Shown here one piece after another: positions 3,005 through 53,679 of a stretch of DNA of 53,679 nt (the stretch's first letter is position 1; every line of letters starts with the position of its first letter). Made by a program: the position numbers and the translations under genes. Source of the stretch: Bacilli bacterium (lineage in GTDB: Bacteria > Bacillota_I > Bacilli_A > ML615J-28 > CAG-313); contig CAADXH010000088.1 in assembly GCA_900752975.1 (NCBI GenBank), positions 1 through 53,679 of the forward strand, in the 5' to 3' direction. Under the pieces are notes generated by a model, which worked only from the letters and a program-made list of their open reading frames with translations, made no database searches and had not been told where the DNA came from.

Positions 3005-3017
3005 AAAGGAGATTAAA

Positions 3018-6000
3018 GTGAGGTACTTTAGTAAATTTATTAGTGTTTTTTTAGTAACCATATTTGTTTTTTTATGTGGATGTAAAAAACAAGTTAAGTT
3101 TGATGTTAATTTCATTGTTGATGATGCACTATATGCTACTGTAGGAACAAGTGGAGATGAAGTAATTTCAATTCCAACAGATCCAGTTAAAGGCGGATTT
3201 GTATTTGATGGTTGGTATTGGGATAAAGATGTATGGCAAAAGCCATTTTCTGCTAATTCATTATTAGATGTAGAATTAAGAGAAAACATGAACGTATATG
3301 CAAAGTTTTTGTCTAATGATGATCCAGTTGGCTGTGATCTTGTTATGGAAGGGTTTGACAATATAGTATCAGTAGAAACTGGAGATATATTATATGGAGA
3401 AACACCAAATGCTCAGATTAATTTTTCATTTGATGATGTAGTTAGAATATCTAACAAATCTACATATACTGTTTCTACTGATTTATCTGGAAATGATATA
3501 ATCAAGAGTAAAACAACAGTATTAGAATTAGGTAATAATCTATTCTTTATTCAAGTATATGATGATACTGGAAAAGTAAAACAATATAACATCGTTATTA
3601 GAAGACATTTAATGTATAAGGTTACATTTAATACTAATGGTGGAACATCAGTAAGTAGTAAGACAGTTGAGGAAGATTCTATTATTAGTGTTCCTAATAC
3701 AACTAGAACTGGTTATGTTTTAAAAGGGTGGGATTATGATTTTTCTGAACCAATTGTCGAGAATACAACTATTAGTGCAATTTGGGAGGCAAAAGAATAT
3801 ATCATTAGTTTAGATGCAAATGATGGAAATTGTGATTATAGTCAATTGAATGCTGAATATAATACTTATTTAGCATTACCTACACCTACTAAGGCAGGAT
3901 ATACATTTAATGGATGGTATAATGAAACTACTAGAGTATATGATGGTGTATGGAAAACAGATAAGAATGTAGAGTTAACTGCTAAATGGACAGCTAATAC
4001 ATATACAATAAGTTATGATTTAGATGGTGGTACTTTAAATAGTAATAAGCCAAGTTCATATAAAACAGGGCAAATAGTTAATATGGGTAATCCTAGCAAA
4101 GTTGGATATGAATTCTTAGGTTGGAGTGTTAATGGTTCTAGTCAAAAATATAAAGATTATCAAATATCTGATATTTATGGGAATATTAGTTTAGTTGCTT
4201 ATTATGAAGCTAATACATATAGTGTAACATTAGATAGTGATGGTGGAGATTGTGAAACTAATTTATTCACTGTTACATATGGCAAAAACTATACTTTACC
4301 AGTTCCAACTAAAGTTGGTTATATATTTGAAGGTTGGTATAATGGAAGTACTAAAGTTGAAGCAGGTGTATGGAATAGAACATATAGCTTAGATTTAAAA
4401 GCTAAATGGAGTATTGCAAATTATACTATCACTTATAATTTAAATGGTGGTTGTAATAATGAAAATAATCCAACATCTTTTACTTTTGAAACTGAAACTA
4501 TTATATTATTAGATGCTACTAAAACTGGTTATACATTTGTTGGTTGGACTTCTAGTGATATAACAACACCAACTAAAAATGTTATTATTGAAAAAGGATC
4601 AACTGAAAATGTTAAGTTTACAGCAAACTTTACTGCTAATAAATATAATGTAATATTTGATGTAAATGGTGGAAGTGAGCTTGAGGAAAATGATCTTGAA
4701 GTGATTTATGATAATAGTTACACATTGCCAAAAACAGAGAAAACTGGTTATAAATTTAAAGGTTGGTATAATGGTGAAGAATTAGTTAATGATGGAATAT
4801 GGAAAATGGACTCAAATGTTACATTAACAGCTAAATGGGAAATTATTACATATAAGATTAACTATGAATTAAATGGTGGAGTAAATAGCAATCAAAACTT
4901 ACAAAATTATAATTATGAATACAGTGATATCTCTATTTATAATCCAACTAAAACTGGTTATACGTTTATTGGTTGGAAGGTTAATGGAGAAGAAGAGTTA
5001 GTGATTGAATATGTAGTTAAACATAATAGCTTAGGTAATATTACTTTGGAAGCTATCTTTACTCCAAATACATATAAATTAACATTAGATGTTAATGGCG
5101 GAAATAGTTTAGAAAAAGATGAAATTGAAATTAAATATGATGAGAAATTAAGTTTAGAAGTTCCTAATAGAACTGGTTATACATTTGCTGGTTGGTATAA
5201 GGAAACTAGTAAAGTTGAAAATGGAACATGGAAATACTTAGAAGATGTTACATTAACAGCTAAATGGAATATTATTAACTATACAATTAAATATAATTTA
5301 GATGATGGAGTTAATAGTTCTAGTAATGTAAGTGGATATACTTATGAAAGTGATGATATTACTATTAGTGAACCAACTAAAACTGGTTATACATTCTTAG
5401 GATGGACATATGGTGATATTATTGTTCCGGAAAAAGAAGTAGTAATTAGTCATAACTCAACTGGTGATATTGAATTAAATGCTTATTTCCAAGTTAATAC
5501 ATATTACATCACATATGATGTTAATGGAGGAAACGAATTAGATCAAAATGTTGTAGGTATTGTTTATGGTACAAACTTTAGTTTAATTACACCAACTAAA
5601 GATGGATATGAATTTAGTGGTTGGTATATTGATTCAACTAAATTTGTTAGTGGAAAATGGACTAAAACAAATGATGTTACGTTAACTGCTAAATGGACAT
5701 TAGTAAATTATTCAATTAGTTATATTCTAGATGGAGGTAAGAGTTCATATAATCCAGCTAAATATAATTATGAATATCAAGATATAGTAATTTCTAATCC
5801 AACTAAAACTGGTTATACATTTATTGGATGGAGTATAAATGATAGTACTGATTTATATATTGATTATGTTATTAAACAACATTCATTTGGAAATTTAGTA
5901 TTAAAAGCTAATTGGCAAGTTAATGAATATAAATTAAGTTTAGATATTAATGGTGGAAATGAATTAGATCAAGATGTGTTTAATATTGAATATGGTTCAG

Positions 6001-7271
6001 ATTTTTCTTTACCAGAACCATCAAGAACAGGTTATACATTTGGTGGATGGTATAATGGAAAAACTAAAGTTGAAAATGGAACATGGAAATACTTAGAAGA
6101 TGTTACATTAACAGCTAAATGGAATGTTATTAATTATAATATAAAATATTATCTAAATGATGCAACTATAAACGATAATCCATTAACATACACTTATGAT
6201 GATGACACTATAGTATTAAATGATCCTTATAAAAAAGGACATACATTTATTGGATGGATTACAGACAGTGTCTTTATTCCGACTAAGGCATTAGAAATAC
6301 CTCATAATAGTTTAGGTGAGTTTTCATTTGAAGCCATATTTGAAGTCAATACATATTTAATTACATTAGATGTTAATGGTGGAGACCAATTAGATATAAA
6401 TGAAATGGAAATAGTGTATGCAGAAAAATATGAATTACCAATTCCGCAAAATGCTGATTATTTATTTAGTGGATGGTATTATGATAATGTATTATTAGAA
6501 AATATTGGTGATTATTATTTTGATAAAAATATAACAATTATTGCAAAATGGACTATAGGTTTTTTTGAAAATGGCGCAAATTATTGTTATTTTGGTAAGT
6601 ATCCTCAATCAATTGTGAATGAGGAAAATTTAATAAATGAATTAAATAAAATTACTATAACTAATGAACAAGGATATGTAGTATATAATAATGAAGAATA
6701 TTATTGCTCAAATGCACGGAATATATATGATGAGTCTATAAAAGGTCATCGTCCTATATTGTTATCAAATGGACAAACTTTACATCATGGTGAAAAATAC
6801 TGGTTTAAAGTTGAGCCTATTAAATGGGAAATTATAAATAATGATGGCAAATCTTTAAAACTTATATGTGAAACAATATTAGAACAGCTTGATTATAATA
6901 TTGGTAGTGGTTATTATAGGCTTTATTATTATAGTAGCTATATTGAGTCACAATTAAAAAAATCAATACAAAAATATTATCAAGATTTATTTTCAAATGA
7001 TGAAAGAGAAAAAATATTATTAAATAATACTTATGATGATTATATATATATTCCTGATAAAGATATAATGTGCACTAGTTTAAGCATAAAAGCATCAGAT
7101 TATGCACAAGCGCATGGATGCTCTGCATCATATGGTTGGTATACATCTTCTACATTTATTGGATCTAATGGAAAAACGTATGTTTATTTAAGTGGTAACA
7201 ATAAATCTAATTATTATGCATATGAAGGCCAAGGACCTAGTTGTAGAATGATGATTGATATTTTATTATAG
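3018..7271 (+). CDS. Giant surface lipoprotein with 15 Listeria-Bacteroides (InlB B-type, Flg_new) repeats and a distinct ~280-aa C-terminal domain
   Basis: AAGGAG RBS plus GTG at 3018. Signal peptide and lipobox MRYFSKFISVFLVTIFVFLCGC. There are 15 occurrences of the (T/K)GY-x-F-x-GW core alternating between two module types. C-terminal FGKYPQS...YWFKVEPIKWEII. Confidence 0.85.
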   Translation: MRYFSKFISVFLVTIFVFLCGCKKQVKFDVNFIVDDALYATVGTSGDEVISIPTDPVKGGFVFDGWYWDKDVWQKPFSANSLLDVELRENMNVYAKFLSNDDPVGCDLVMEGFDNIVSVETGDILYGETPNAQINFSFDDVVRISNKSTYTVSTDLSGNDIIKSKTTVLELGNNLFFIQVYDDTGKVKQYNIVIRRHLMYKVTFNTNGGTSVSSKTVEEDSIISVPNTTRTGYVLKGWDYDFSEPIVENTTISAIWEAKEYIISLDANDGNCDYSQLNAEYNTYLALPTPTKAGYTFNGWYNETTRVYDGVWKTDKNVELTAKWTANTYTISYDLDGGTLNSNKPSSYKTGQIVNMGNPSKVGYEFLGWSVNGSSQKYKDYQISDIYGNISLVAYYEANTYSVTLDSDGGDCETNLFTVTYGKNYTLPVPTKVGYIFEGWYNGSTKVEAGVWNRTYSLDLKAKWSIANYTITYNLNGGCNNENNPTSFTFETETIILLDATKTGYTFVGWTSSDITTPTKNVIIEKGSTENVKFTANFTANKYNVIFDVNGGSELEENDLEVIYDNSYTLPKTEKTGYKFKGWYNGEELVNDGIWKMDSNVTLTAKWEIITYKINYELNGGVNSNQNLQNYNYEYSDISIYNPTKTGYTFIGWKVNGEEELVIEYVVKHNSLGNITLEAIFTPNTYKLTLDVNGGNSLEKDEIEIKYDEKLSLEVPNRTGYTFAGWYKETSKVENGTWKYLEDVTLTAKWNIINYTIKYNLDDGVNSSSNVSGYTYESDDITISEPTKTGYTFLGWTYGDIIVPEKEVVISHNSTGDIELNAYFQVNTYYITYDVNGGNELDQNVVGIVYGTNFSLITPTKDGYEFSGWYIDSTKFVSGKWTKTNDVTLTAKWTLVNYSISYILDGGKSSYNPAKYNYEYQDIVISNPTKTGYTFIGWSINDSTDLYIDYVIKQHSFGNLVLKANWQVNEYKLSLDINGGNELDQDVFNIEYGSDFSLPEPSRTGYTFGGWYNGKTKVENGTWKYLEDVTLTAKWNVINYNIKYYLNDATINDNPLTYTYDDDTIVLNDPYKKGHTFIGWITDSVFIPTKALEIPHNSLGEFSFEAIFEVNTYLITLDVNGGDQLDINEMEIVYAEKYELPIPQNADYLFSGWYYDNVLLENIGDYYFDKNITIIAKWTIGFFENGANYCYFGKYPQSIVNEENLINELNKITITNEQGYVVYNNEEYYCSNARNIYDESIKGHRPILLSNGQTLHHGEKYWFKVEPIKWEIINNDGKSLKLICETILEQLDYNIGSGYYRLYYYSSYIESQLKKSIQKYYQDLFSNDEREKILLNNTYDDYIYIPDKDIMCTSLSIKASDYAQAHGCSASYGWYTSSTFIGSNGKTYVYLSGNNKSNYYAYEGQGPSCRMMIDILL
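5211..5270 (+). repeat. 60-nt perfect intragenic duplicate (copy 1) inside the repeat lipoprotein gene
   Basis: AAAGTTGAAAATGGAACATGGAAATACTTAGAAGATGTTACATTAACAGCTAAATGGAAT is identical to 6066-6125, offset 855 bp (285 codons). Confidence 0.9.
6066..6125 (+). repeat. 60-nt perfect intragenic duplicate (copy 2)
   Basis: Identical to 5211-5270. Confidence 0.9.
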
Positions 7272-11134: not shown

Positions 11135-12091
11135 CTATAAATTATTTTCTTTTAAGAAGTCTTGAATGGCTTTATCATATAATTCAGGTGTAACCGCACG
11201 AATATGAGAGTGAGCACCTTTATCAAACCATACAAGTTTTTTGGATTTACTACCACACCTATCATAAAGCTCTTGAGCTCTTGCAGGTAGTGAGTATAAA
11301 TCCTCTTTACTATGTAAAAGTAATAGTGGTTTATCAAGTTTATCAATGCAATCTTTTGGACCATATTTCATAGTGTGATGTGTGAAATGACGCATCCAAA
11401 AATCACATTCTTGAAGGACTGGAAAGAGTGGACGTTTATCAACAATCATATGATTTTTAAATGAATCATAGAAGTCAGGGTACATTCCTTCAGCAATTAA
11501 AGCTTTAATGTTGCTAGGGCAATCTTGCCTAATCATTGCGTATAATGCGGCCGCAGAACCAATACATATACCATGCATAACAATGGTATCTATATGGTAG
11601 GTATCATGTAAGAAATTAGCCCATGCGATAACATCTTTGCATTCTTCAAAACCTATTGTGTTATATTCTCCATCACTATAGCCATGCGCTCTAGGATCAA
11701 TAACCAAGATGTTGTAACCTGCATCTTGATAAGGTTTGGCGAAGAAATAAGAATACATACATGCTTCAGTTCTACCTTGATGGATGAAAGCAACTTTGTC
11801 ATAGCCAAAATCAAAATATTCACCATAAAGGTTTAATCCTTCATTTATGATGTGAACATCTTTTTTATAACCTTTATTTTTTTCTCCCCATTCAAGGCCA
11901 ATCTCATACATTCTAACTTGAAGTTTGTTGGTCATCCATGAACAATGTCTTCCCCATGTGTCTTTGTCTTTACGATGAAGATGCTTTAAATAAATTTTTC
12001 TTGCAAGAAAAAAAGTAAAAATAAAATATGAAATTATTGATAATACTAATATAGAACCAATAATTATTGGAATTATTACATAAAGTGGCAT
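11135..12091 (-). CDS. Membrane-anchored alpha/beta-fold hydrolase/acyltransferase with Cys at the nucleophile elbow
   Basis: N-terminal TM helix. Nucleophile elbow VMHGICIGSAAAL (G-x-C-x-G instead of G-x-S-x-G). Candidate acid LHSKEDLYS and His GAHSH. AGGAGGG RBS. Confidence 0.75.
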   Translation of the reverse strand: MPLYVIIPIIIGSILVLSIISYFIFTFFLARKIYLKHLHRKDKDTWGRHCSWMTNKLQVRMYEIGLEWGEKNKGYKKDVHIINEGLNLYGEYFDFGYDKVAFIHQGRTEACMYSYFFAKPYQDAGYNILVIDPRAHGYSDGEYNTIGFEECKDVIAWANFLHDTYHIDTIVMHGICIGSAAALYAMIRQDCPSNIKALIAEGMYPDFYDSFKNHMIVDKRPLFPVLQECDFWMRHFTHHTMKYGPKDCIDKLDKPLLLLHSKEDLYSLPARAQELYDRCGSKSKKLVWFDKGAHSHIRAVTPELYDKAIQDFLKENNL

Positions 12092-32162: not shown

Positions 32163-32239
32163 TGGCGTCCCAGAAGGGATTCGAACCCCCGACACACGGC
32201 TTAGAAGGCCGTTGCTCTATCCAACTGAGCTACTGGGAC
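32163..32239 (-). tRNA. tRNA-Arg (anticodon UCU)
   Basis: The reverse complement folds as a cloverleaf: GTCCCAG TA GCTC AGTTGGATA GAGC A ACGGC CT-TCT-AA GCCGT GTGTC GGGGG TTCGAAT CCCTT CTGGGAC G CCA. Confidence 0.9.
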
Positions 32240-44921: not shown

Positions 44922-45007
44922 GCAGCAATGGCGGAATGGTAGACGCGCTACTTTGAGGGGGTAGTATACGAACGTATGTGTGAGTTCAAATCTCATTTGC
45001 TGCACCA
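44922..45007 (+). tRNA. tRNA-Leu (anticodon GAG), type II with long variable arm
   Basis: GCAGCAA TG GCG GAATGGTAGA CGC G CTACT TT-GAG-GG GGTAG TATACGAACGTATGT GTGAG TTCAAAT CTCAT TTGCTGC A CCA. Confidence 0.9.
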
Positions 45008-45018
45008 TAAGAAAAGCA

Positions 45019-45211
45019 AAGGTTTGATACAAAAGTATTGAACCTTTTTTCTTTGCATAAAGGGAGTTAGTTCCTTTCTGTAAGTAAACAGCAGAGCCTT
45101 GTAGGAGTGTTTAACCGCACTTTTGCAGGGCTCTTTTTCTTTATATGTAATAATTACGGAACGAAAGGTATATCTGCGGAACGATAGATATTGCTACGGG
45201 ACGATATTTTT
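45019..45211 (+). repeat. Cassette left-end module A, copy 1: two terminator-like hairpins followed by three 20-bp-phased direct repeats
   Basis: Recurs at 46325-46518. The first 45 nt differ at one position. AACCGCACTTTTGCAGGGCTCTTTTTCTTTAT is identical in both copies. Hairpins at 45019-45051 and 45094-45140. Confidence 0.85.
45157..45210 (+). repeat. Three phased direct repeats (iteron-like) in A1
   Basis: CGGAACGAAAGGTA (45157), CGGAACGATAGATA (45177), CGGGACGATATTTT (45197); exact 20-bp spacing. Confidence 0.8.
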
Positions 45212-45234
45212 TTGTTATGCAGTAGGCGAATGTA

Positions 45235-45263
45235 TTGTAAAAATACGATTTTTGTGCTATAAT
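45235..45263 (+). promoter_or_regulatory. Sigma-A promoter for cassette 1 cargo
   Basis: TTGTAA, 17 nt, TATAAT; 36 nt upstream of the GTG at 45300. Confidence 0.5.
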
Positions 45264-45299
45264 AAACTCAACGATAAGAATTTGGCGGAGGGAATAAAA

Positions 45300-46169
45300 G
45301 TGATAATAGAATTTAAATATTCAGTGGTTCAGGATTTAATGTATCATATCTTAGCACACATGAAAGTGGATAATCCATCAAATTTGTATTCCGAAGCATA
45401 CATAGATAATGTTAAGGAAATTAAAAAAGGTAGATATGATAGTATTACAGATGTAGTATCGCCTTTATCAAATTACTATAACGAAAACTTTGAAAGATTA
45501 GGAGTAATTAATTTTCTACCGTTTGTGTGTTCTTCTGTTCAAGATTTAATAGGTGCAATCGAAAACTATTATGGCTTCACAGAAACAGATAAGAAAGAAT
45601 TTATATTTCCACTAATTCAACTTTTAAAAAGTGAATTTGAATTTTATGAAGGCTACTGGAACGAACTATATGCCACAACCTCTATATGTAGAAAATCGTT
45701 TGAATCGTGGTTGAAAAGTGGAATGAGCAAATATGAGACATTATTCTCATATTTTAATAAATCTGCTGTAGTAGGTATGTCTTATAGTTTGACAAACAAT
45801 GGTAGAGGATTTGGAGACACATCTTCATTTAATGCAGTTGTTCCATTTGCTTTTGATGAAAGTGAATATAAAAATATCTTCTATCAAATATTGCATGAGT
45901 ATACACATCAATTCACAGATAAATTGATTGGTGAAAGTATCAGAATGGATGATGAGACACATGATAGTTCTGAGAAAGCAGTGATTTTATTTGATTATTA
46001 TTTGGTAAAAAAACTATATAAAGAAGATACGGATTCCTACTTGAAATGGATTGGCTCACTTGCAAACGCTGATAATTGTGATGAAAATTTATTTTTATCT
46101 GTTTTTAAAATCAACGATGACATCAATGAAAAACTATTGGAATTGGTAGAGAAGATAACAAGAAGATAA
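45300..46169 (+). CDS. Hypothetical protein with an HExxH motif (cassette 1 cargo)
   Basis: GGAGGG RBS plus GTG at 45300; YQILHEYTHQF contains HEYTH. The upstream part of the track ORF (45123-45299) overlaps the A1 repeat and the promoter. Confidence 0.5.
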   Translation: MIIEFKYSVVQDLMYHILAHMKVDNPSNLYSEAYIDNVKEIKKGRYDSITDVVSPLSNYYNENFERLGVINFLPFVCSSVQDLIGAIENYYGFTETDKKEFIFPLIQLLKSEFEFYEGYWNELYATTSICRKSFESWLKSGMSKYETLFSYFNKSAVVGMSYSLTNNGRGFGDTSSFNAVVPFAFDESEYKNIFYQILHEYTHQFTDKLIGESIRMDDETHDSSEKAVILFDYYLVKKLYKEDTDSYLKWIGSLANADNCDENLFLSVFKINDDINEKLLELVEKITRR

Positions 46170-46210
46170 TAGCATCACTGGTTGTTTATAACGCACTTAA
46201 TCTTTTTACA

Positions 46211-46314
46211 AATTCCAATTTATCGGTGCGTTTAACTGTACGCAAATTTTGACAAGGTGTACGCACTTTTTATGGGGTGTACGCAAATTGTATCAAAATA
46301 GGTATTCGCACACA
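46211..46314 (+). repeat. Cassette right-end module B, copy 1
   Basis: AATTCCAATTT...then GTACGCA at 46238, 46259 and 46279 (21- and 20-bp spacing)...GTGTACGCAAATTGTATCAAAATAGGTATTCGCACACA. Recurs at 53364-53486. Confidence 0.85.
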
Positions 46315-46324
46315 AAAGAGAGAT

Positions 46325-46518
46325 AAGGTTTGATACAATAAGTATTGAACCTTTTTTCTTTGCATAAAGGTTTTATTTCCCTATCTGTAAACGATCATCA
46401 AAACCTTGTGAGAGTTTTTAACCGCACTTTTGCAGGGCTCTTTTTCTTTATGATAAATAGCTACGGAACGATAGATATTGCTACGGGACGATAGGTGCAT
46501 CAGCGGAACGAAAGGTTT
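46325..46518 (+). repeat. Cassette left-end module A, copy 2
   Basis: See A1. Phased units CGGAACGATAGATA (46464), CGGGACGATAGGTG (46484), CGGAACGAAAGGTT (46504), a circular permutation of the A1 unit order. Confidence 0.85.
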
Positions 46519-46564
46519 ATTTGATAAATTTTTAATTTTTGCCTCGACATATTTTGCAAATTAA

Positions 46565-46593
46565 TTGTTTTTTACTTTTGAAAGTGTTATAAT
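46565..46593 (+). promoter_or_regulatory. Sigma-A promoter downstream of A2
   Basis: TTGTTT, 17 nt, TATAAT. Confidence 0.4.
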
Positions 46594-46733
46594 TTTATAT
46601 ATGATTTGATATTTTGTACGAGTCGATAATATGAAAATAGACTATCCAGCGACTATTATCAAGGTAAGAGCAACGCTGAACCTAGGGTGAAAGCAGCAGA
46701 GGACCCGGAAAAAATGCTGCAGGAATTAGAATA

Positions 46734-47480
46734 ATGAAAATAATATTATCTCCAGCAAAAAAGATGAATATAAACCTTGATACTTTAGAACCTATGGGAT
46801 TGCCCATGTTTATTGATAGGTCTACGGAAATATTAGCATGGTTCAAAGACAAGTCTAAAGATGAGTTAAAGGAATTGTGGGAATGCAATGATAAAATCGT
46901 GGAGCAAAATGTGAGACGTTTAGAGAATATGGACTTGTACCATAGGCTTACACCGGCGATATTATCATATGAAGGAATTGCGTACCAGTACATGGCTCCT
47001 ACAGTATTTGAGGATGGGCATTTTGAATATATACAGGAACATCTAAGGATATTATCAGCGTTCTATGGTGTTTTGAAGCCAATGGATGGAGTAACACCTT
47101 ACTGCTTAGAGATGAAGGCAAAAGCTACAATCGGAAATAAAAAAAACTTATATGAATATTGGGGGGATATGCTTTACAAAGGTGTTAGAGATGAGAAGGG
47201 CATTATAATTAATCTGGCATCAAAAGAATATTCTAAATGTATCGAGAGATATCTATCCGAAGAAGATACCTATATATCTATAACATTTTGCGAATTATCT
47301 GCCGGGAAACTAGTAACAAAAGGTACTTATGCAAAAATGGCACGAGGTGAAATGGTCAGATTCATGGCAGAAAACTGCATTGATAATCCCGAAGAAATAA
47401 AGAAATTCAATAGACTTGGATACGTTTTTAGAGAAGACTTATCTTCTAAAATAGAATATGTTTTTGAAAGAAGACTATGA
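46734..47480 (+). CDS. yaaA: Peroxide stress protein YaaA (UPF0246)
   Basis: MKIILSPAKKM, SYEGIAYQYM, LRILSAFYGVLKPMDGVTPYCLEM. Confidence 0.85.
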   Translation: MKIILSPAKKMNINLDTLEPMGLPMFIDRSTEILAWFKDKSKDELKELWECNDKIVEQNVRRLENMDLYHRLTPAILSYEGIAYQYMAPTVFEDGHFEYIQEHLRILSAFYGVLKPMDGVTPYCLEMKAKATIGNKKNLYEYWGDMLYKGVRDEKGIIINLASKEYSKCIERYLSEEDTYISITFCELSAGKLVTKGTYAKMARGEMVRFMAENCIDNPEEIKKFNRLGYVFREDLSSKIEYVFERRL

Positions 47481-47562
47481 GTTTGCTATCATAGTTTTTC
47501 TTGACTTTAATAAAGATACATAGTACAACATTTTATAGCATATGCCAAAAAAAGGTGTTAAG

Positions 47563-47927
47563 ATGCCAAGATGCAGAAAGAGAATAGTATGTAAAGAGCC
47601 TGATGTTAAAGTGTTTATACATCAGCAAAATGATAATAGCGAAATGTTGATTATGACTGTTGATGAATACGAAAGCATAAGACTGATTGACTTGGAAGGA
47701 TTCGGTCAGGAAGAATGTGCTAATAAGTTAGGTGTTGCACGGATAACTGCTCAATTAATTTATAATAATGCGAGAAAAAAATTGCAAAGGCGTTAGTGAT
47801 GGGAAACGAGCTTCAAATCGAAGGTGGAAATTATGTGCTTTGTGATGGTAGCCCGCATTGTAAAAAATGTCATTTGACGAAATCTTACTTGAATCAAAGA
47901 CAATTACAAGAAAAGGAGAATGGAATT
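47563..47927 (+). pseudogene. DUF134-family DNA-binding protein interrupted by a -1 frameshift in an A7 tract
   Basis: MPRCRKRIVCKEPDVKVF...ARKK then a stop 5 codons later in frame 0. The -1 frame from the A7 tract (47775-47781) reads IAKALVMGNELQIEGGNYVLC, the expected DUF134 C-terminus. Confidence 0.6.
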
Positions 47928-48308
47928 ATGCGAATAGCGGTAACATATGACAACGAAGAGGTATTTCAGCATTTTGGAAGAACAGAGAATTTTAAAGTAT
48001 ATGAAATAGAGAATAATCAAGTCATTTCTTCGGAAGTGATTAGCTCAAATGGACAAGGACATGGTGCTCTGGTAGGAGTGCTTGCAACAAATCAGATAGA
48101 TGTACTTATTTGTGGCGGTATCGGAGGCGGTGCACAGATGGCGCTTGCAGAAGCCGGAATAGAACTGTGTGCAGGTGCAACGGGAAATGTGGATAAAGCA
48201 GTTTCAAGTTATCTTGCCGGTACACTTGTAAATACCGGTCCAAATTGTAATCACCATCACCATGAGGATAGACATGCTTGTGGAGACCATGGATGTGGAA
48301 AGCATTAA
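47928..48308 (+). CDS. NifB/NifX-family (dinitrogenase Fe-Mo cofactor domain) protein with a His/Cys-rich tail
   Basis: AAGGAG RBS. MRIAVTYDNEEVFQHFGRTENFKVYEI...GHGALVGVL....IDVLICGGIGGGA; tail NHHHHEDRHACGDHGCGKH. It is in frame with the shifted DUF134 tail, with no intervening stop. Confidence 0.7.
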   Translation: MRIAVTYDNEEVFQHFGRTENFKVYEIENNQVISSEVISSNGQGHGALVGVLATNQIDVLICGGIGGGAQMALAEAGIELCAGATGNVDKAVSSYLAGTLVNTGPNCNHHHHEDRHACGDHGCGKH

Positions 48309-48335
48309 TTTATAAAACGAATTGAGGTGTAAGAA

Positions 48336-50027
48336 ATGAAAGTGGTAATTGTAGGTGGTGTGGCTGGTGGAGCTTCGGCCGCAGCAAGAATTCGCCGTTT
48401 GGACGAAAGTGCAGAAATAATTGTTTTTGAAAAGACAGGATATATTTCTTACGCCAATTGTGGTCTGCCATATTATATCGGTGATGTAATCACAGATTCC
48501 AATGACTTGACACTTCAGACGCCGGAAAGTTTTTGGACAAGATTTCGAATTTTAGTAAAAGTCAATCATGAAGTAACTAACATTGATGTGACCCAAAAGA
48601 CAGTAACAGTAAAAAATCTGCTTACAGGTACAGAATGTGAGGAACCTTATGATAAGCTCTTATTATCTCCGGGTGCAAAACCTGTAAAACCAAATCTGTC
48701 CGGAATTGACAGTGAAAAGATTTTTTCGCTAAGAACGGTAGAAGATACGTTTCGGATTCATGATTATTTGGAAAAAACAAAAGCGCAAAGTGCTGTGATT
48801 GTGGGCGGAGGCTATATAGGTATTGAGGTTGCGGAAAATCTTAAGGGAAAAGGTCTTAATGTGACGATTGTTCAGAGACCGAATCAGTTGATGAATACGC
48901 TGGATTATGATATGGCTTCGTTTGTTCATAGTAAGCTTCGTGAAAAGGGAATTTCATTAAGACTGAATAGTAATGTTATTTCTTTTCGACAGGATGGAGA
49001 ACGTATTGTGACCATGCTGGAAGATAATAGTGAAATAGCAGCTGATATGGTTTTGCTTGCCATAGGAGTGGCACCCGAAAATAGTCTTGCAAAACAAGCA
49101 GGACTAAAGCTTGGTGTAAAAGGAAGTATTGTCGTAAATGATCGTATGGAAACCTCTGTACAGGATATTTATGCTGTGGGTGATGCTATTCAGGTGAAAC
49201 ATTTTGTGACACAAGAAGATACCGTAATTGCACTTGCAGGACCGGCAAATAAGCAGGGACGTATTGCAGCAGATAATATCTGTGGAGGGGATAGTCATTA
49301 TCAGGGTTCTATGGGTTCCTCCATAATAAAGATATTTGATATGACTGTTGCAGTAACTGGTTTGACTGAGAAAGTAGCTAAATCTATGGGAATTGATTGT
49401 GAAAGTGTTGTTCTTTCCCCAACTTCTCATGCAGGTTATTATCCCGGTGCAAAAGTTATGACCATGAAAGTTGTCTTTGAAAAGGATACATGGAAACTTC
49501 TTGGAGTGCAGATTGTGGGAACAGAAGGTGTGGATAAGAGACTGGATGTGCTTGCCACAGCAATACATGCCGGTATGAAAGCGAATATGCTTAAGGATTT
49601 AGATTTGGCATATGCACCACCATTTTCATCTGCAAAAGACCCTGTAAATATGGCTGGTTTTATGATTGAAAATATAAGTAAAGGAATGATTAAGCAATAT
49701 CATTGGGATGAGGTTAAAAATTTACCGAGGGACGGAAGTGTTACATTATTGGATACCAGAACGTCATATGAGTACAAAAGTGGACACATTGATGGGTATA
49801 TCAATATTCCGGTGGATGACTTAAGAGAACGAATGAATGAAATTGATGACAGTAAGCCGGTGTATGTAATATGCCAGAGTGGTCTCCGAAGTTATATCGC
49901 TTGCCGAATATTATCTCAGAATGGTTTTGATTGTTACAATTTTTCCGGTGGATATCGTTTTTACGCAAGTGTTATCCATGAAAAACAAATGAGTGAATGT
50001 ACATACCCTTGTGGTATGGAAAAATAA
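48336..50027 (+). CDS. CoA-disulfide reductase / NADH oxidase-family flavoprotein with a C-terminal rhodanese domain
   Basis: [19 protein letters not shown], redox Cys [10 protein letters not shown], second Rossmann [11 protein letters not shown]. Rhodanese active site [11 protein letters not shown]. Confidence 0.85.
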
Positions 50028-50041
50028 AAAGGAGGTATTTT

Positions 50042-50674
50042 ATGAGGTACATATGTCAAATTTGTGGATATGTCTATGATGATGAAAAAGAAAAAGTTCC
50101 ATTTGAACAGTTGCCGGCGGACTGGAAGTGTCCACTTTGTGGTGCGGTTAAATCTGATTTTAAGCTGGAAGTACCCAAAACAGAAGTAAATCCAGTCAGT
50201 GTGAATACAGAGGCTGCAGACCTAAAAAAACTTTCAGCGGGACAATTAGCTGCGGTATGCTCTAATCTTGCAAGAGGTTGTGAAAAGCAGTACAAATCGG
50301 AGGAAGCAGGTCTATTCAATGAACTGGCAGCATATTTTACCAGTATTACACCGGCAGTAAATGATGCAACTGTTGAAAATGTGGCGAAACTGTTACAGGA
50401 GGATATAGATAAATATCCTACTGTTAGAGCTGTTGTGGACCAAAATAAAGATAGGGGTGCAGCAAGAATCTGTGTATGGGGTGAAAAGGTTACAAGAATG
50501 CTTTCATCACTGGTAAACAGATATCTGAATGAAGGAGAGGCAATGCTTGCTGATACAGACATTTGGGTTTGTACAGTGTGTGGATTTGTATATATTGGAG
50601 AGACACCACCTGAGCTTTGCCCGGTATGTAAAGTTCCTCCTTACAAATTTGAAAAGATAGAGGGGAGAGGATAA
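50042..50674 (+). CDS. Rubredoxin-domain protein: N-terminal rubredoxin, central helical domain, C-terminal Cys4 rubredoxin-like domain
   Basis: [12 protein letters not shown]...DWKCPLCGA, and [10 protein letters not shown]...[17 protein letters not shown] before the ATG at 50042. Confidence 0.7.
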
Positions 50675-50676
50675 AT

Positions 50677-51855
50677 ATGGAATTAAAGGCAGTTAGAAAC
50701 CTTAGACTTTGTACAAAGGATTGTCTGTGTCTGTATGTATGTCCTTATGGAGCGACAGATACGGAAGATAGTATTATTGATATCAATAAATGTGTGGGAT
50801 GCGGAATGTGTGCGCAGGCTTGTCCTAGTGGAGCTATCAGCATGGTACCCGTTGAGTTTCCGCCACAACAATCTAAAACGGATGAAGTAAAGGCTACATT
50901 AAACGAACTGGCACAGAATAAGTCTGATGGTGAGACTATGGCCAGACAAATAGTAGATACAACGGATAGGGAAGGACTTAGCCGTTTAATGAATGCAGTA
51001 GCCAAATCAGAAAGACTTATTGCGGAAGATATTGTTAGAGAAGCTGGTTTTATGCTTCCACAGAGCAATAATGTACATGAGTTATTAGAGGAGTTGATTG
51101 CAAATCCTCCTACGTCAGACTTTCCAATGGAAACAGCAAAGAAGTTATTAGAAATTGTTCCAAATAATGAAAAAAAAGAAAAATCGAAGGGAGAAACAAT
51201 TATGACAACATGGAAATGTACAGTATGCGGATACGTTCACGAAGGGGAACAGCCACCGAAGCAGTGCCCAATATGTAAGCAGCCTGCTGAGAAATTCGAG
51301 AAAGTAGCAGAGGTTAAGAAGAACCCATACGTAGGAACCAAAACAGAAAAGAACTTATGGGAAGCATTTGCCGGTGAGTCACAGGCAAGAAATAAGTACA
51401 CTTACTTTGCATCTGTAGCAAAGAAAGCCGGATATGAACAGATTGCGGCTTTGTTCTTACAGACAGCAGAGAATGAGAAAGAACACGCAAAGCTTTGGTT
51501 TAAAGCCTTGGGCGAACTTGGTGATACAGCAGAAAACCTTCTTCATGCAGCAGAAGGCGAAAATGCAGAATGGACCGATATGTATGAGAGAATGGCAAAG
51601 GATGCAGAGGAAGAAGGCTTTACAGAACTTGCAGCACAGTTTAGAGGTGTAGCTGCCATCGAGAAGTTGCATGAGGAAAGATATCGTGCATTGCTTAAAA
51701 ATGTTGAAACTATGGAAGTATTTAAAAAGAGTGGCGTAACTATGTGGGAATGTCGTAACTGCGGTCATGTAGTAGTCGGTCTTGAAGCACCGAAAGTTTG
51801 CCCTGTATGTAATCATCCACAGGCATATTTTGAAGTACGTAAAGAGAATTATTAA
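50677..51855 (+). CDS. Ferredoxin-rubredoxin-rubrerythrin fusion protein
   Basis: N-terminal [12 protein letters not shown] 4Fe-4S motif; [10 protein letters not shown]...CPICKQP; ferritin-like diiron helices [38 protein letters not shown]; C-terminal WECRNCGH...CPVCNHP. Confidence 0.8.
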
Positions 51856-51870
51856 CAGGAAGTTTTTTAT

Positions 51871-52239
51871 ATGAAATATTATATTTGTTAGCATTGTGGA
51901 AATATCATTGAATATGTGAAGGAGTCAGGTGTTCCAGTTATGTGCTGTGGTCAGAAGATGACAGAGATTGTACCGGGAACCAGTGAGGGTGCACATGAGA
52001 AGCATGTACCTGTTGTAATAGTGGATGTAGGCAAGGTGACTGTTGAAGTTGGTGAAGTAGGGCATCCAATGGTAGAAGCACATTGTATTCAGTGGATTGC
52101 TATTGAAACAACAAGAGGTGGTCATAAAGTTAAATTAGAATATACAGATAAACCAAGAGCAGAGTTTAAACTTGCGGATGGAGAAGAATTTGTGGCAGCC
52201 TATGAGTACTGCAATTTACATGGGTTATGGAAGAAATAA
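51871..52239 (+). CDS. Desulfoferrodoxin-type superoxide reductase with an in-frame TAG in the N-terminal CxxC (possible pseudogene, or a truncated form starting at 51916)
   Basis: MKYYIC-TAG-HCGNIIEYVKESGVPVMCCGQKM is a desulforedoxin-like domain. The SOR centre II ligand regions HEKHVPV, H..VEAHCI and YCNLHGLW are intact. The TAG is at 51889-51891. Confidence 0.7.
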
Positions 52240-52292
52240 GATATAGCAAATAGAGGTACATGTTTCAGCTTTACGCATACTATGTATTTAAA

Positions 52293-52332
52293 ATAGCCTT
52301 ATTCATTATGTGTATGGATAGGGCTATTTTTT
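52293..52332. terminator. Bidirectional terminator between the SOR gene and the minus-strand remnant
   Basis: ATAGCCTTATTC...GGATAGGGCTAT followed by TTTTTT. Confidence 0.55.
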
Positions 52333-52346
52333 CGGTTGGGGGGCGA

Positions 52347-53060
52347 TTATCTCGCCCCTTTATCTCTGCTTCGGTAAGGTTGACTGGCATTCTGCCTGTC
52401 AGCCATTTCTTGATATCGTTGTAACTTTTCGTGCATGGTTTCGGCTTTTGGAGTGGCTTTCTCTCCGTAGGATTCCTCCCACTTGGCACATTCTTTCTGA
52501 TATGCTTCGGTGGAACGCTGTGCGGTATAGAATGCTGTGTAGAAATCCTGTACTGTTGCAAATCCGTGTTGTCTGACGATACCGGATAATCCGGCTTTGA
52601 GGGTTCGGATTCCTCGGTTTTGGTGGCAATCTTGCTTTCAAGCTCCTTTTTCTTGGGAGCCTTGAAAGCCCCTTCAAAGCGCTTAATTCAATTTCCAGTT
52701 TTGTCCGTTCACGCTCTGCTTCAAAGATAAGGTTATTGTGTTTATCAAGAGTAACCTTGACCTTTTGAAGTCTTGGGAAAGCGGTAGCTTCCGGTGGCAT
52801 AACCGGTCTTGGTGGTATCTGTTGTTTGGGCAGTTCTACAACCTCTGTTTCAAGAACAGTTGCGGTAACTGTAACGCTTGGTGACTTAGGCTCTGTTATT
52901 GTTTCCTTATTTGGAACTGTAACTATATCTGCGGTGTCCACAGCTTTTATATCTGCCTTGCTTCCATACCCTTTTTCTAGAGTTTCACGGAACAGCTTGT
53001 CTTTCAGTTCCCTTGCGGCGGTCAGTACCTTGGAAATCAAAAGTGCAAGTTTGACAAAGA
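52347..53060 (-). pseudogene. 5'-truncated, twice-frameshifted remnant of a coiled-coil protein, tentatively of the kind encoded by Firmicutes mobilisable elements
   Basis: Three frames join into one plausible sequence: ...LDKHNNLIFEAERERTKLEIE, then KRFEGAFKAPKKKELESKIATKTEE, then IRTLKAGLSGIVRQHGFATVQDFYTAFYTAQRSTEAYQKECAKWEESYGEK...DKGAR-stop. Shifts lie near 52687 and 52608. There is no N-terminal catalytic domain. Confidence 0.5.
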
Positions 53061-53066
53061 GACGTA

Positions 53067-53522
53067 ATGAGTATTGTTGTAAATATCTACTATACGGGAA
53101 TGAACGGAAGTGCAAGGAAATTTGCCGAGGAAATGATTTCAAGAGGAATTGTAGATAAAATACGCGTAGAAGAAGGGAATGAAAGATACGAATATTTCTA
53201 TCTGATAGACGACACAGAGACACTATTGCTTATAGATAATTGGAAAAGTCAAGAAGCACTTGACTTCCACCATAAAACAAAAATGATGAAAGAAATTGCG
53301 GAGTTACGCAAAAAATATCAGTTGAAGATGAAAGTCGAAAAATTTACAAAACTTGATAAAATAAATTCCAATTTCTTGGCGAGTTCAACTGTACGCATTT
53401 TAATTACATGTACGCAAATTTTGATAAGGTGTACGAACTTTTTTAAGGGTGTACGCAAATTGTATCAAAATAGGTATTCGCACACATTAAAGTCGGTCAA
53501 AAAGTATTTTGTAGACTTTTAA
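53067..53522 (+). CDS. Antibiotic-biosynthesis-monooxygenase (ABM)-like protein whose ORF reads through into repeat B2
   Basis: MSIVVNIYYTGMNGSARKF......LLIDNWKSQEALDFHHKTKMMKEI is a ferredoxin-like ABM pattern (~98 aa). The remaining ~53 codons are encoded by repeat B2. Confidence 0.55.
   Translation: MSIVVNIYYTGMNGSARKFAEEMISRGIVDKIRVEEGNERYEYFYLIDDTETLLLIDNWKSQEALDFHHKTKMMKEIAELRKKYQLKMKVEKFTKLDKINSNFLASSTVRILITCTQILIRCTNFFKGVRKLYQNRYSHTLKSVKKYFVDF
53364..53486 (+). repeat. Cassette right-end module B, copy 2
   Basis: GTACGCA or GTACGAA at 53391, 53410, 53431 and 53451. It ends ...GTGTACGCAAATTGTATCAAAATAGGTATTCGCACACA as in B1 and carries one extra ~20-bp unit relative to B1. Confidence 0.85.
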
Positions 53523-53566
53523 AAAATAAGCTATTTTCACAAAAATTCATAGTTTCACTATGATGA

Positions 53567-53590
53567 AGAGCTGAAAATAGCTCTTTTTTT
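53567..53590 (+). terminator. Rho-independent terminator
   Basis: AGAGCT-GAAAAT-AGCTCT followed by TTTTTTT. An upstream segment AAGCTATTTTCA (53528-53539) can pair alternatively with TGAAAATAGCTT-like 53572-53583. Confidence 0.6.
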
Positions 53591-53639
53591 ATTCATGTTA
53601 ATGTCAAGTTAAAAACAACCAATTTTGATGATTTAAGTT

Positions 53640-53668
53640 TTACCAATTATGGTGAAAGTTAAATCATC
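53640..53668. repeat. Right copy of the 29-bp inverted repeat bracketing the window
   Basis: TTACCAATTATGGTGAAAGTTAAATCATC. It contains ATG GTG AAA GTT AAA TCA..., which stays open to the window edge. Confidence 0.8.
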
Positions 53669-53679
53669 ATTTTTTATTC

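Follow-up and report, generated by a model that had tools for sequence, protein, structure and literature searches.

The DNA analysed here (hereafter the window) is a 53,679-nt contig from a Bacilli bacterium, and the features described below lie on its forward strand unless stated otherwise. A tRNA-Leu(GAG) gene (44922–45007; ARAGORN, Rfam), whose terminal CA occupies positions 45006–45007, is the docking site of two cassettes placed back to back. The order is tRNA-Leu(GAG), A1, cargo 1, B1, A2, cargo 2 and B2, where A and B stand for repeated left-end and right-end modules, and the first cassette starts directly after the last base of the tRNA gene. This order had been predicted from the sequence and is confirmed, with repeats far beyond chance, as is the lack of a recombinase, a Pfam search of both units having returned none in either cassette. 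The original prediction had also placed about 10 bp between B1 and A2; B1 in fact abuts A2, and these base pairs are the conserved linker with which A starts.

Cassette 1 (45008–46314) is a complete 1307-bp unit composed of A1, one gene and B1. Its cargo was announced as a single HExxH protein and is indeed one 289-aa protein with an HEYTH motif (45300–46169); this protein has no family match, and its exact sequence is indexed in 1447 blocks of assemblies. Cassette 2 (46315–53486) is a 7172-bp unit made of A2, a redox cargo, an ABM gene and B2, and A-to-B units of 4–8.5 kb are also found elsewhere (L001, L108, L109, L111). It also holds a small truncated gene, the remnant of an HTH gene (MKIDYPATIIKVRATLNLG*, 46632–46691), an intact HTH being the first gene of sister elements at the same tRNA-Leu site (MKLDYASAIINLRIKLNLSQ... 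in L078). The redox/oxidative-stress block itself (46734–52239; Pfam, ORFs) comprises YaaA, DUF134, a NifX-like protein, a pyridine-nucleotide-disulphide oxidoreductase with a rhodanese domain, a rubredoxin/RBDX protein, a Fer4-rubrerythrin and a desulfoferrodoxin (all from Pfam). Further on are a higher-GC scar (about 52260–53060; GC 0.458, AT skew -0.31), in which a broken minus-strand ORF has no family match, and the ABM-domain gene (53067–53350; ORFs, Pfam), the open frame of which runs through B2 to 53522. The cargo had been described as an 8-gene oxidative-stress block plus an ABM gene: the latter stands, but we found 7 intact ORFs instead of 8 genes, and the description has to be extended to the truncated HTH ORF and to the scar with its broken ORF. 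Two further hairpins follow B2 (53487–53679); they belong either to the native terminator region or to a third left end that has degenerated. In this region assemblies break or branch, L088 continuing with GGGGAGTTGAAC twice and the window differently.

The left-end modules A1 (45008–45299) and A2 (46315–46640) share a 186-nt direct repeat with 76% identity (45033–45218 versus 46340–46525). The predicted repeat of about 195 bp is real, and other loci extend A to about 290–325 bp. An alignment of 18 A modules begins exactly after CCA or CACACA, and A1 reaches an nhmmer score of 352. A1 is made up of a 15-nt linker, two terminator hairpins, repeats, a promoter, a 5'UTR and an RBS. Hairpin 1 with its T-run (45018–45053; terminator scan) acts as a terminator for the tRNA, and carries the motif TGATAC (45025–45030, i.e. 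+18 to +23 from the junction), for which we propose a role as a recombinase half-site. TGATAC lies at +18 to +23 in nearly all strong-hairpin left ends: among about 38 distinct ones, whose stems covary, all but one have it at +18 (the exception, L100, has CAATAC), while it occurs in none of 30 tRNAs without a cassette. As the motif is fixed in position in the first hairpin, this hairpin is probably more than a terminator. In A2, hairpin 1 is located at 46325–46353 and TGATAC at 46331–46336, that is at +17, the canonical position minus one base. The second terminator of A1, hairpin 2 with its T-run (45093–45144; terminator scan), lies in a region containing a 35-nt exact repeat present in A2. 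It is followed by three phased 20-bp repeats (CGGAACGAWAG..., 45157–45216), which start at 46464, 46484 and 46504 in A2 and are conserved in A modules of other genomes; CGGRACGAWAG occurs seven times (0.45 expected), six of them in A at a 20-bp phase. Finally, a cassette promoter with an extended TG (TTGTAA-17-TATAAT, 45235–45263; promoter scan) is conserved in position and sequence across the 18 aligned modules. The scans thus recovered both terminator-like hairpins and the cargo-facing promoter that had been predicted. The two terminators of A would stop the transcript of the tRNA or of an upstream cassette, and the promoter and RBS of the cassette itself would then drive the cargo.

At the other end, B1 (46204–46314) contains AAATTCCAATTTATCGG, three TGTACGCA repeats (at 46237, 46258 and 46278), TTGTATCAAA (46288–46297), 15 nt and a final CA (46313–46314). 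B2 (53356–53486) has four phased repeats, TTGTATCAAA (53460–53469), 15 nt and CA (53485–53486). Both copies (46210–46314 and 53363–53486) are 92% identical over 83 nt and 86% identical over another 35 nt; their repeats are phased at about 20 bp, all six occurrences of TGTACGCA fall within B (0.49 expected), and the 26-mer GTGTACGCAAATTGTATCAAAATAGG is found twice against 0 expected. Copies of B from other genomes, about 60 in number, terminate without exception in ...CA, and their sequences diverge from there on. These variants differ in their repeats (GGTGTACGCA, GGGTACGGA, GGGTATGCA, GGTGTGCA or GTGTTTGCA), and GTAT(C/T)A is present at positions 18–23 from CA in every one. The suspected likeness between the end of B and the 3' end of a tRNA proved real and in register, as the T-C-A of B and T55-C56-R57 of the tRNA are equidistant from the terminal CA.

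Comparison with other loci supports the mobility of these units. Cassette 1 is found behind tRNA-Leu(GAG) in the window, L083 and L087, and behind tRNA-Lys(CTT) with 99.9–100% identity (L076, L090–L099). The alignment spans exactly positions 1–1307, homology running from after CCA to the final CA of B, and the flanks differ from the first outside base. In two of the tRNA-Lys loci (L093, L097), a 4.7-kb Tet-like element is located between CCA and cassette 1. Similarly, 22 contigs encode an identical thioesterase; eight of them, which are conspecific, share the upstream genes and are identical up to CACCA but divergent from the next base. Seven different fillings were observed after tRNA-Leu, each having TGATAC at +18 behind a linker of about 15 nt. 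The alternatives found at this site include R-M islands, a phage-like element, and elements that encode two large serine recombinases. No B was detected within 10 kb of the R-M islands, so B is not universal, which counts against the reading favoured below. Beyond tRNA-Leu(GAG), we counted at least eight tRNA species as A-end sites in many gut Firmicutes genomes, with A-type ends directly after the CCA of tRNA-Ala(CGC), Ser(GGA), Ser(GCT), Pro(CGG), Leu(CAG), Leu(TAG), Tyr and Lys(CTT). Such ends also follow tmRNA genes (L100, L109), tRNA 3' fragments (L001, L036, L061, L101) or, directly, another B end. Different units carry different cargo between A and B (ANT(2'')-like, GNAT, Tet-like ribosomal protection protein, type I R-M, ThsB, redox genes), and the ANT(2'')-like and the GNAT cassettes are 90–94% identical between MAGs labelled Mollicutes/Acholeplasmatales, Christensenellaceae and Clostridia.

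Judging from these comparisons, both units of the window are discrete mobile cassettes with exact boundaries. They belong to an apparently undescribed family, widespread in gut Firmicutes, whose cargo includes resistance, defence and stress genes. The two A and two B copies of the window could in principle stem from one duplication, A and B then being intergenic repeats of the common dispersed kind, or the outcome of a local tandem duplication, without mobility. We consider this barely conceivable, since many genomes together contain about 60 copies of B and at least 40 left ends, all of which sit at tRNA-type ends and bound variable cargo, and since content varies between strains at the exact junction. 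The original prediction had itself named generic dispersed repeats, or boundaries not coinciding with A and B, as grounds for abandoning it; instead, A and B bound variable cargo at tRNA and tmRNA 3' ends in dozens of genomes, and related strains differ exactly between CCA and A. Another explanation without a dedicated enzyme is that A and B are the conserved flanks of a recombination hotspot, where homologous recombination, following transformation or transduction, would exchange the cargo. With about 290 bp for A and about 110 bp for B, both modules have the length required of homology arms, constant flanks enclose a changing cargo, and unexplained target duplications around the cassette at three loci (L001, L036, L061), which count against our own reading, resemble homologous-crossover products. 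However, such swapping cannot put an identical cassette at unrelated tRNA genes with base-exact CCA and CA junctions, and leaves unexplained the fixed 15-nt spacings, whose linkers differ in sequence; we thus regard it as improbable.

The junctions between B and A all conform to TTGTAT(C/T)AAA-N15-CA-N15-TTTGATACAA, a dyad centred on CA, although the B1-A2 linker of the window has 14 nt instead of the canonical 15, which again counts against our reading. There is no target duplication, as B ends in the same ...CA whichever the tRNA. This geometry suggests that the CA dinucleotide is likely the crossover point. A cassette would arrive as a circle, its joined B and A ends forming an attP-like site, and the partner site would be the 3' end of any CCA-encoding tRNA or tmRNA gene, or a tRNA 3' fragment, in which the universal T-loop bases T55-C56-R57 are as far from the terminal CA as their counterpart in B. 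Crossover at CA would keep the tRNA intact without any duplication, the cassette then having CCA on one side and the native terminator on the other. When a further cassette arrives at the tRNA, it would displace older ones outward; alternatively, the newcomer may dock at a B end, a mimic of the tRNA end. The phased repeats may play some role as well. The native terminators, which make up the downstream half of the attB proposed here, show no conserved motif, and this does not favour the scheme. Neither a circle nor a read from an empty site came to light: an exact scan of metagenome contigs for the 40-mer of the B-A junction found 0 matches, and a shorter B-A pattern matched only chromosomal arrays. 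Overall, we favour, with a probability of about 0.6, the reading that both units are non-autonomous integrative cassettes that cross over at CA and are mobilised in trans by a pair of serine recombinases. The prediction of repeated site-specific integration, with an attP equal to B joined to A and a recombinase encoded elsewhere, is supported.

Asymmetric ends, the absence of target duplication, a single orientation of insertion 3' of a fixed short sequence and a hairpin about 13 nt inside the left end would also suit an HUH enzyme (IS200/IS605- or IS91-like) moving single-stranded cassettes and inserting them 3' of CCA/ACA, with hairpin 1 as left-end hairpin. But a target of 3–4 nt cannot account for the near-exclusive use of tRNA and tmRNA ends. 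Furthermore, no right-end hairpin is conserved across B variants (by eye), no Y1 or Y2 transposase is present in any locus, and hairpin 1 resembles an RNA terminator, with a T-run after it and stem changes that keep G-U pairs on the plus strand. This makes an HUH enzyme very improbable.

Under the favoured reading, the recombinase would be supplied in trans by related autonomous elements with the same end architecture. Paired large serine recombinases (about 430–450 aa and 520–530 aa, with Resolvase, Recombinase and Zn_ribbon domains) adjoin such ends in four element types, and probably move the cassettes. The pair is directly beside the same tRNA-Leu site in L080/L082 and beside a tmRNA CCA in L100 (the larger recombinase being 89% identical to that of L080). 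In L101–L104 it is part of an element that has a tRNA-Met fragment before its left end, and in L085 it lies immediately upstream of a B-like end, to which a left end of the L080 type is joined. In addition, a B of the TGTACGCA type in L060 directly meets an L080-type left end that has a recombinase remnant, and a large serine recombinase of 519 aa is encoded singly in L009, its gene ending about 1.4 kb upstream of an A/B cassette. About 25 complete A-to-B units contained no recombinase, and none was found within 6 kb of the B ends examined, about 60 in number, so the helper link is based on shared ends and adjacency, not on co-occurrence statistics. Two features do not fit serine recombinases well. 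The attB and attP half-sites of large serine recombinases differ by a 5-bp shift of the zinc-ribbon motif, whereas the T-loop of the tRNA is in the same register as B; and phased accessory repeats are not known from their sites.

Phased direct repeats on both arms of the B-A junction are typical of the attP of tyrosine recombinases, and tRNA genes are classic targets of such integrases. The cassettes might thus be classical cis-mobilisable elements moved by a tyrosine recombinase encoded elsewhere, the repeats being arm-type or excisionase sites of a lambda-like attP. AACGAT-type repeats adjoining a tRNA 3' fragment in a phage contig (L001) point the same way, and the integrase of the phage-like occupant (L081, L084) was not seen. 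We nevertheless hold this to be rather unlikely. The repeats of A and B differ in sequence, while arm sites of one integrase share a consensus. Partners have in common only CA, at most CCA/ACA, so there is no identical overlap of 6–8 bp, and the conserved inverted motifs, 32 bp apart, are too distant for core-type sites. Moreover, the sole tyrosine recombinase in the fetched loci is located between hsdS genes (L078), segments of which it probably inverts; serine recombinase pairs are what recurs beside these ends.

Several known systems share part of this organisation, the nearest being ccr-less SCC elements, Dehalococcoides ssrA islands, cis-mobilisable elements and tycheposons. Among staphylococcal SCC elements, ccr-less pseudo-SCC elements occur in composite islands. 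As in SCC, cassettes are stacked head to tail at one chromosomal site, some elements carry a large serine recombinase pair of about 450 and 540 aa (CcrA/CcrB, PMC3146451) while others, without recombinase, are thought to be mobilised in trans, and the recombinase-bearing relatives found here have a primase/helicase-type gene (DUF3987). Unlike SCC, which uses rlmH, the present cassettes occupy the CCA ends of many tRNA and tmRNA genes; the recombinases score 55–143 bits against NCBIfam CcrA/B/C models with cut-offs of 700–900; many cassettes are single genes of 0.6–1.7 kb with their own promoter and A/B repeat modules; and no direct repeat longer than CA forms. Integron cassettes and integrase-less attC clusters are similar in concept: their units are small, mostly hold one gene and have a conserved recombination module on the 3' side, and they are placed head to tail at a platform, often without an integrase nearby. 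Here, however, there is no attC-type imperfect palindrome or GTTRRRY core, each cassette itself supplies promoter and terminators, a tRNA end serves as the platform, and no IntI was seen in the window units or the loci examined.

The cis-mobilisable elements at streptococcal ICE/IME sites (PMC5704250) likewise have attL/attR-type bounds, encode no recombination or transfer genes, and form tandem arrays by accretion, a neighbour's recombinase being thought to excise them. They are, however, decayed derivatives of tyrosine-recombinase elements with real att repeats, whereas dedicated, conserved two-module ends surround single expressed genes here, at a generic site instead of one gene. Prochlorococcus tycheposons (Hackl et al., bioRxiv 10.1101/2020.12.28.424599) also bring adaptive or defensive cargo to several tRNA genes, with older elements pushed outward by newcomers, and a minority of them use large serine recombinases. 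Unlike our cassettes, they encode their own integrase and replication genes and are flanked by partial tRNAs, and each integrase type has its own tRNA (10.1101/2020.12.28.424599). Finally, in the ssrA islands of Dehalococcoides, those without an integration module were proposed to be cis-mobilisable (McMurdie et al. 2011, PMC3146451). These islands use one site, versus many tRNA species here, their second recombinase has about 200 aa, unlike here, and A/B modules are not described for them; our junction is formed by the final CA, with B no more than a mimic. They nonetheless form tandem arrays downstream of a tRNA-like gene, in which the reverse strand beside attL encodes a CcrB-like and a smaller serine recombinase (PMC3146451), an arrangement also seen in L080/L082, and an L080-type element is found at a tmRNA gene here too (L100).

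In the window, two cassettes lie behind tRNA-Leu(GAG) (44922-45007, by ARAGORN and Rfam), each bounded by a left-end module (A) and a right-end module (B). The repeat finder recovers A1 and A2 as a direct repeat of 186 nt with 76% identity, and B1 and B2 as 83 nt at 92% identity plus 35 nt at 86%. The B 26-mer GTGTACGCAAATTGTATCAAAATAGG is present twice in the window, both times within B (0 expected by chance), TGTACGCA six times, always within B (0.49 expected), and CGGRACGAWAG seven times, six of them within A and in 20-bp phase (0.45 expected). The A/B repeats and the array proposed at this tRNA gene in the original prediction are thus confirmed, as is the lack of a recombinase in both units, since neither cassette has a Pfam match to one. 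The consensus scan likewise calls both A hairpins as terminators and recovers the promoter that had been claimed with them (TG-extended, 45235-45263). Two details need correction: the ~10 bp thought to separate B1 from A2 are part of A, and cargo 2, described as eight oxidative-stress genes plus an ABM gene, does include the ABM gene but has seven intact redox ORFs.

We consider it highly probable (about 0.9) that these units are discrete mobile cassettes targeting the CCA ends of tRNA-type genes. Cassette 1 (45008-46314) provides a first example: the same 1307 bp are found behind tRNA-Lys(CTT) in loci from other assemblies (L076 and L090-L099) at 99.9-100% identity, and the alignments span positions 1-1307 and no further. 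In two of these loci (L093 and L097, 2990-7700), a 4.7-kb element is wedged between the CCA of tRNA-Lys(CTT) and cassette 1. Its left end reads CCA, then N15-TTTGATAC, and a B variant ending in TTGTATTAAA-N15-CA closes it on the right. It encodes a 639-aa EF-G/Tet-like GTPase, which probably serves in ribosomal protection, together with a methyltransferase and a small ORF. The B variant of this element alternates GTGTTTGCA with AAAACGAWAG repeats. Cargo at other loci includes an ANT(2'')-like nucleotidyltransferase, two ORFs reading as GNAT acetyltransferases, a kinase-like protein, a cupin-like protein, a membrane-protein pair resembling a split chromate transporter, an EamA-like transporter, a methyltransferase, a type I restriction-modification (R-M) system, ThsB and an Fe-hydrogenase-rubrerythrin fusion, part of these labels coming from a reading of the translations, without a Pfam run. 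The ANT and GNAT cassettes are 90-94% identical across MAGs of different classes.

B marks the right end of an element that is widespread. When a 20-mer from B was scanned over one genome per species, 75 loci were found, of which nine are coding-sequence coincidences in Pontibacter; the others are B copies in MAGs labelled Clostridia, Christensenellaceae, Oscillospiraceae, Erysipelotrichaceae, Bacilli, "Mollicutes" and Acholeplasmatales. Nearly all B copies terminate at ...CACACA and differ in sequence from the very next base, beyond which an A-rich stretch, a hairpin and a T-run make up an ordinary terminator, different in sequence at each locus. A plus-strand gene always ends ~100-150 bp upstream of the B end. 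Many copies sit at contig ends, as expected of a repeat. Variants of B differ in their repeats (GGTGTACGCA, GGGTACGGA, GGGTATGCA, GGTGTGCA or GTGTTTGCA), and every one of them has TTGTAT(C/T)AAA, exactly 15 nt, and CA.

This structure bears on several known types of end. An integron attC site is an imperfect inverted repeat (R''-L''...L'-R') with a GTTRRRY core, whereas B consists of direct repeats plus TTGTATCAAA-N15-CA and ends in CA, in contrast to the G/TTRRRY of attC. Moreover, integron cassettes are promoterless and depend on a platform promoter and IntI, whereas every cassette here brings a conserved promoter preceded by two terminators, and no IntI was found in the window or in the fetched loci. 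The integron reading was therefore rejected. B also resembles the right end of Tn7-type elements, but Tn7 elements run from 5'-TG to CA-3', carry one set of transposase-binding repeats in inverted orientation at their two ends and make a 5-bp duplication, while the first bases of A are TAAG or AAAG and its repeats are of another kind. As no B was found anywhere in inverted orientation, and there is neither a TG start nor a duplication, we rejected this reading as well. A Xer/dif origin of the B start was discarded, with 14 of 28 matches to B. subtilis dif and no inner palindrome.

Left ends were collected by BLAST and nhmmer, which at ~25 loci find an A module ahead of B, in the same orientation and at a distance of 0.5-8 kb. 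Eighteen aligned A modules have a common start column, namely the base after ...CCA or ...CACACA, and a common layout: a linker with hairpin 1, hairpin 2, two to three CGGAACGAWAG repeats, then a conserved promoter, 5'UTR and RBS reaching the start codon. Directly upstream of A are complete tRNAs (Ala-CGC, Ser-GGA, Ser-GCT, Pro-CGG, Leu-CAG, Leu-TAG, Tyr and Lys-CTT), a tmRNA gene, a tRNA 3' fragment or another B end. Hairpin 1 is predicted to work as an RNA terminator too, because its pairing is kept through plus-strand changes compatible with G-U pairs and a T-run follows directly. Non-autonomous IS200/IS605 elements have subterminal hairpins at both ends, on one strand, and a Y1 transposase partner, whereas only the left end has a hairpin here: by eye, no conserved right-end hairpin is seen across the B variants, and TnpA is found in none of the loci, which led us to reject this origin. 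An HTH protein as binder of the phased repeats was also rejected, as HTH similarity does not follow repeat type and the same family heads internal defence modules.

Strain variation at the tRNA-Leu site points to the same boundary. The exact thioesterase gene upstream of tRNA-Leu was found on 22 contigs; the eight of them that were compared have tig, clpX, lon, secG, rnr, smpB and the tRNA through CACCA in common, and diverge from the first base past CACCA. One (L083) carries the two cassettes of the window. The others carry an HTH gene and type I R-M (L077), an A-type module with HTH, type I R-M and GmrSD (L078), an HTH gene with Dcm/LlaJI/GmrSD (L079), two large serine recombinases with a DUF3987 primase and HTH_17, then BREX or R-M (L080 and L082), or a phage-like element (L081 and L084). 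All tRNA-Leu fillings follow one left-end plan, namely CCA, 15 nt, a TGATAC hairpin, a T-run and a second hairpin, then phased repeats (element-specific in sequence, with an ACGA core) and a promoter. For L077-L082, the 10 kb examined at each locus contained no B, and the left end of the phage-like occupant gave 0 matches in the viral-contig scan.

The geometry of the junctions is strict. TGATAC lies at +18 to +23 in all but one of ~38 distinct strong-hairpin left ends, whose linkers vary in sequence (the sole exception, L100, has CAATAC), and it is absent from this position in 30 of 30 tRNA genes without a cassette. Read outward from CA, both arms show A-C-T-A-T-G at positions 18-23, and the B-A junction is therefore a dyad centred on CA. 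Large serine recombinases cleave with a 2-bp stagger at the central dinucleotide, and the quasi-dyad of a site of this type (~50 bp, 2-bp centre, no further identity required between the partners) is found here, with GTAT(C/T)A at 18-23 in both arms of every B-A junction. Any tRNA presents R57-C56-T55 at positions 18-20, so that the weak likeness first suspected between the B end and the tRNA 3' end is genuine, and in register. Between attB and attP of large serine recombinases, the register of the zinc-ribbon motif is expected to differ by 5 bp; the tRNA T-loop has the same register as B, with no 5-bp shift. B and the tRNA targets are identical at CA only, without duplication, which fits junctions that would be made by conservative exchange with a 2-bp overlap, a hallmark of serine recombinases. 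In the window, the B1-A2 linker is 14 nt, and this junction may no longer be optimal.

Mobilization by a DDE transposase, as for MITEs and mobile insertion cassettes, would involve terminal inverted repeats and target-site duplications, neither of which is seen here. DNA duplications flanking cassettes were absent except at three loci. In L036 (4351-6420) and L061 (2756-3960), cassettes lie between duplicated target DNA in the order tRNA-Gly, 48-72 nt, 85-100 nt of unrelated DNA, a tRNA 3' fragment, the cassette and the same 48-72 nt; in L001 (1920-8100), the cassette has on both sides a 410-bp repeat whose end is a tRNA fragment. Simple conservative insertion does not account for these three duplications. 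A 5.2-kb cassette of L001, an IMG/VR contig, contains four tandem 19-bp repeats, CCATACAATTTAACGATTA (2480-2556); their AACGATTA core is found again in A-type repeats, in certain B variants and in repeats beside a tRNA fragment of this contig.

No A-to-B unit contains a recombinase, and clustering of ORFs within 6 kb of all B ends yielded no recurring one. Related elements do carry them. In L080 and L082, a pair of 443 and 522 aa lies on the reverse strand directly beside the same tRNA-Leu CCA. L100 has the same left end beside a tmRNA CCA, with a pair of 447 and 520 aa, the larger being 89% identical to that of L080. In L101-L104, where the left end follows a 22-nt tRNA-Met fragment, the pair (426 and 529 aa) is accompanied by capsid, DUF3987 and HTH_17 genes. 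Finally, the L085 pair (437 and 527 aa, 48-50% identical to that of L080) precedes a terminator and a B-like end (GGTGTGCA five times, then TTGTATCAAA-N15-CA), to which a left end of the L080 type is joined. L060 has a left end of this type too, with a recombinase remnant, and a TGTACGCA-type B directly adjoins it; in L009 a gene for a single 519-aa large serine recombinase ends ~1.4 kb upstream of an A/B cassette. Considering that cassette 1 occurs at two tRNA genes and that recombinase-bearing elements have the same ends, we infer, with moderate confidence, that cassettes would be excised and integrated by a recombinase acting in trans. Sequences of circles or empty sites were not recovered, and scanning metagenome contigs with a 40-mer of the B-A junction gave 0 matches.

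The best NCBIfam matches of the paired recombinases are CcrB and XisF, but their CcrA/B/C scores (55-143 bits) are far below the cut-offs (700-900), and they are not Ccr proteins. SCC elements encode CcrA/CcrB or CcrC, of which the window cassettes have none, and insert at the 3' end of rlmH with flanking repeats, whereas the site here is the CCA end of tRNA or tmRNA genes, with only CA in common.

With their base-exact conserved ends and no Pfam recombinase, the cassettes resemble cis-mobilisable elements (PMC5704250), which have attL/attR-type bounds and no recombination or transfer genes. Dehalococcoides ssrA islands (PMC3146451) are a second working analogue: like them, the related elements here have a reverse-strand recombinase pair next to attL, but, unlike in those islands, B shows no repeat of the host tRNA end. 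Ccr-less SCC elements and tycheposons are the others. None of these four analogues combines many tRNA species as sites, a terminal-CA junction without a tRNA-end repeat, and a two-module design (terminators, phased repeats and promoter around mostly single genes). We found no prior description of such cassettes in Rfam, phage and plasmid collections or the literature searched. At the gathering threshold, Rfam reports only tRNAs in the window, with no credible hit to A or B even when E values up to 5 are allowed, and no match in four related loci; INPHARED phages gave no BLAST match and PLSDB plasmids tRNA-level matches only; literature searches returned nothing relevant for motif strings and analogues only for keywords.

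A broader joint reading, which we hold only tentatively and think rather unlikely as a whole, is that of a general cassette system of gut Firmicutes, with a role like that of integrons in Proteobacteria. Essentially every tRNA or tmRNA gene could then offer its CCA end as a docking site to small cassettes that drive their own expression and lack a recombinase, since the helper pair of serine recombinases would read the universal T-loop and CCA and not one gene; as the B end copies this signal, arrays could grow without limit. The phased repeats of A and B, joined in the excised circle, could form a trans-activated replication or packaging signal, which could let cassettes ride on satellite-like helper elements. 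If so, one modular system would carry a large share of the strain-level gene variation beside tRNA genes in uncultured gut Firmicutes, affecting aminoglycoside- and tetracycline-type resistance, R-M, BREX, Thoeris defence and oxygen stress. It would also provide a natural recombinase accepting many tRNA ends as landing sites, and a compact insulated expression cassette made of two terminators, promoter, gene and end module. The simple, searchable ends also allow cassettes to be delimited to the base in metagenomes.

Several further observations concern these loci. Judged from its genes, the capsid, DUF3987 primase and HTH_17 element of L101-L104 is like a capsid-forming phage satellite, and AAA_15/21 ATPase and HSDR_N_2 defence-type genes lie between it and tRNA-Met. 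A ~50-70-nt motif (..GTGCCTAGGACCACGTTAAAAGGCTAG.GCACATTCGG.TACGGAA.CAGT..) followed by a terminator-like hairpin is complete in L023 (~215-290) and L086 (~11690-11760), while L054 has only the 3' part of it, immediately before B (1005-1100); the motif has no Rfam match and looks like a structured RNA leader.

In the window itself, cargo 2 contains a truncated HTH ORF (46632-46691), a 19-codon remnant of a small HTH gene (LGVSF..VNRWE family) whose intact counterpart is the first gene of R-M and BREX modules in sister elements; cassette 2 thus seems to descend from an element of this HTH-headed kind. A patch at ~52260-53060, with higher GC (0.46), strongly negative AT skew and a frame-broken minus-strand ORF with no family match, looks like a scar that another element left within cassette 2. 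A 180-aa small serine recombinase (1591-2133, minus strand; Resolvase domain, weak match to Mpi-type invertases) was rejected as helper, being 43 kb distant with no tie to the cassettes found; its gene lies just upstream of that of a 1426-aa Listeria-Bacteroides-repeat surface protein (2991-7271), and the enzyme is possibly an invertase for phase variation. tRNA-Arg(TCT) (32163-32239, minus strand), the second tRNA of the window, has an encoded CCA, no cassette and no TGATAC at +18, and is an unoccupied potential site. Finally, the window ends (8-37 and 53640-53669) have a ~30-nt palindromic sequence in common, 97% identical and in inverted orientation. Independent assemblies (L083 and L087, 53763 bp) end at the same point, ~200 nt past B2, and the small contig L088 departs after the second hairpin, where it has GGGGAGTTGAAC twice; the array may extend past the window.
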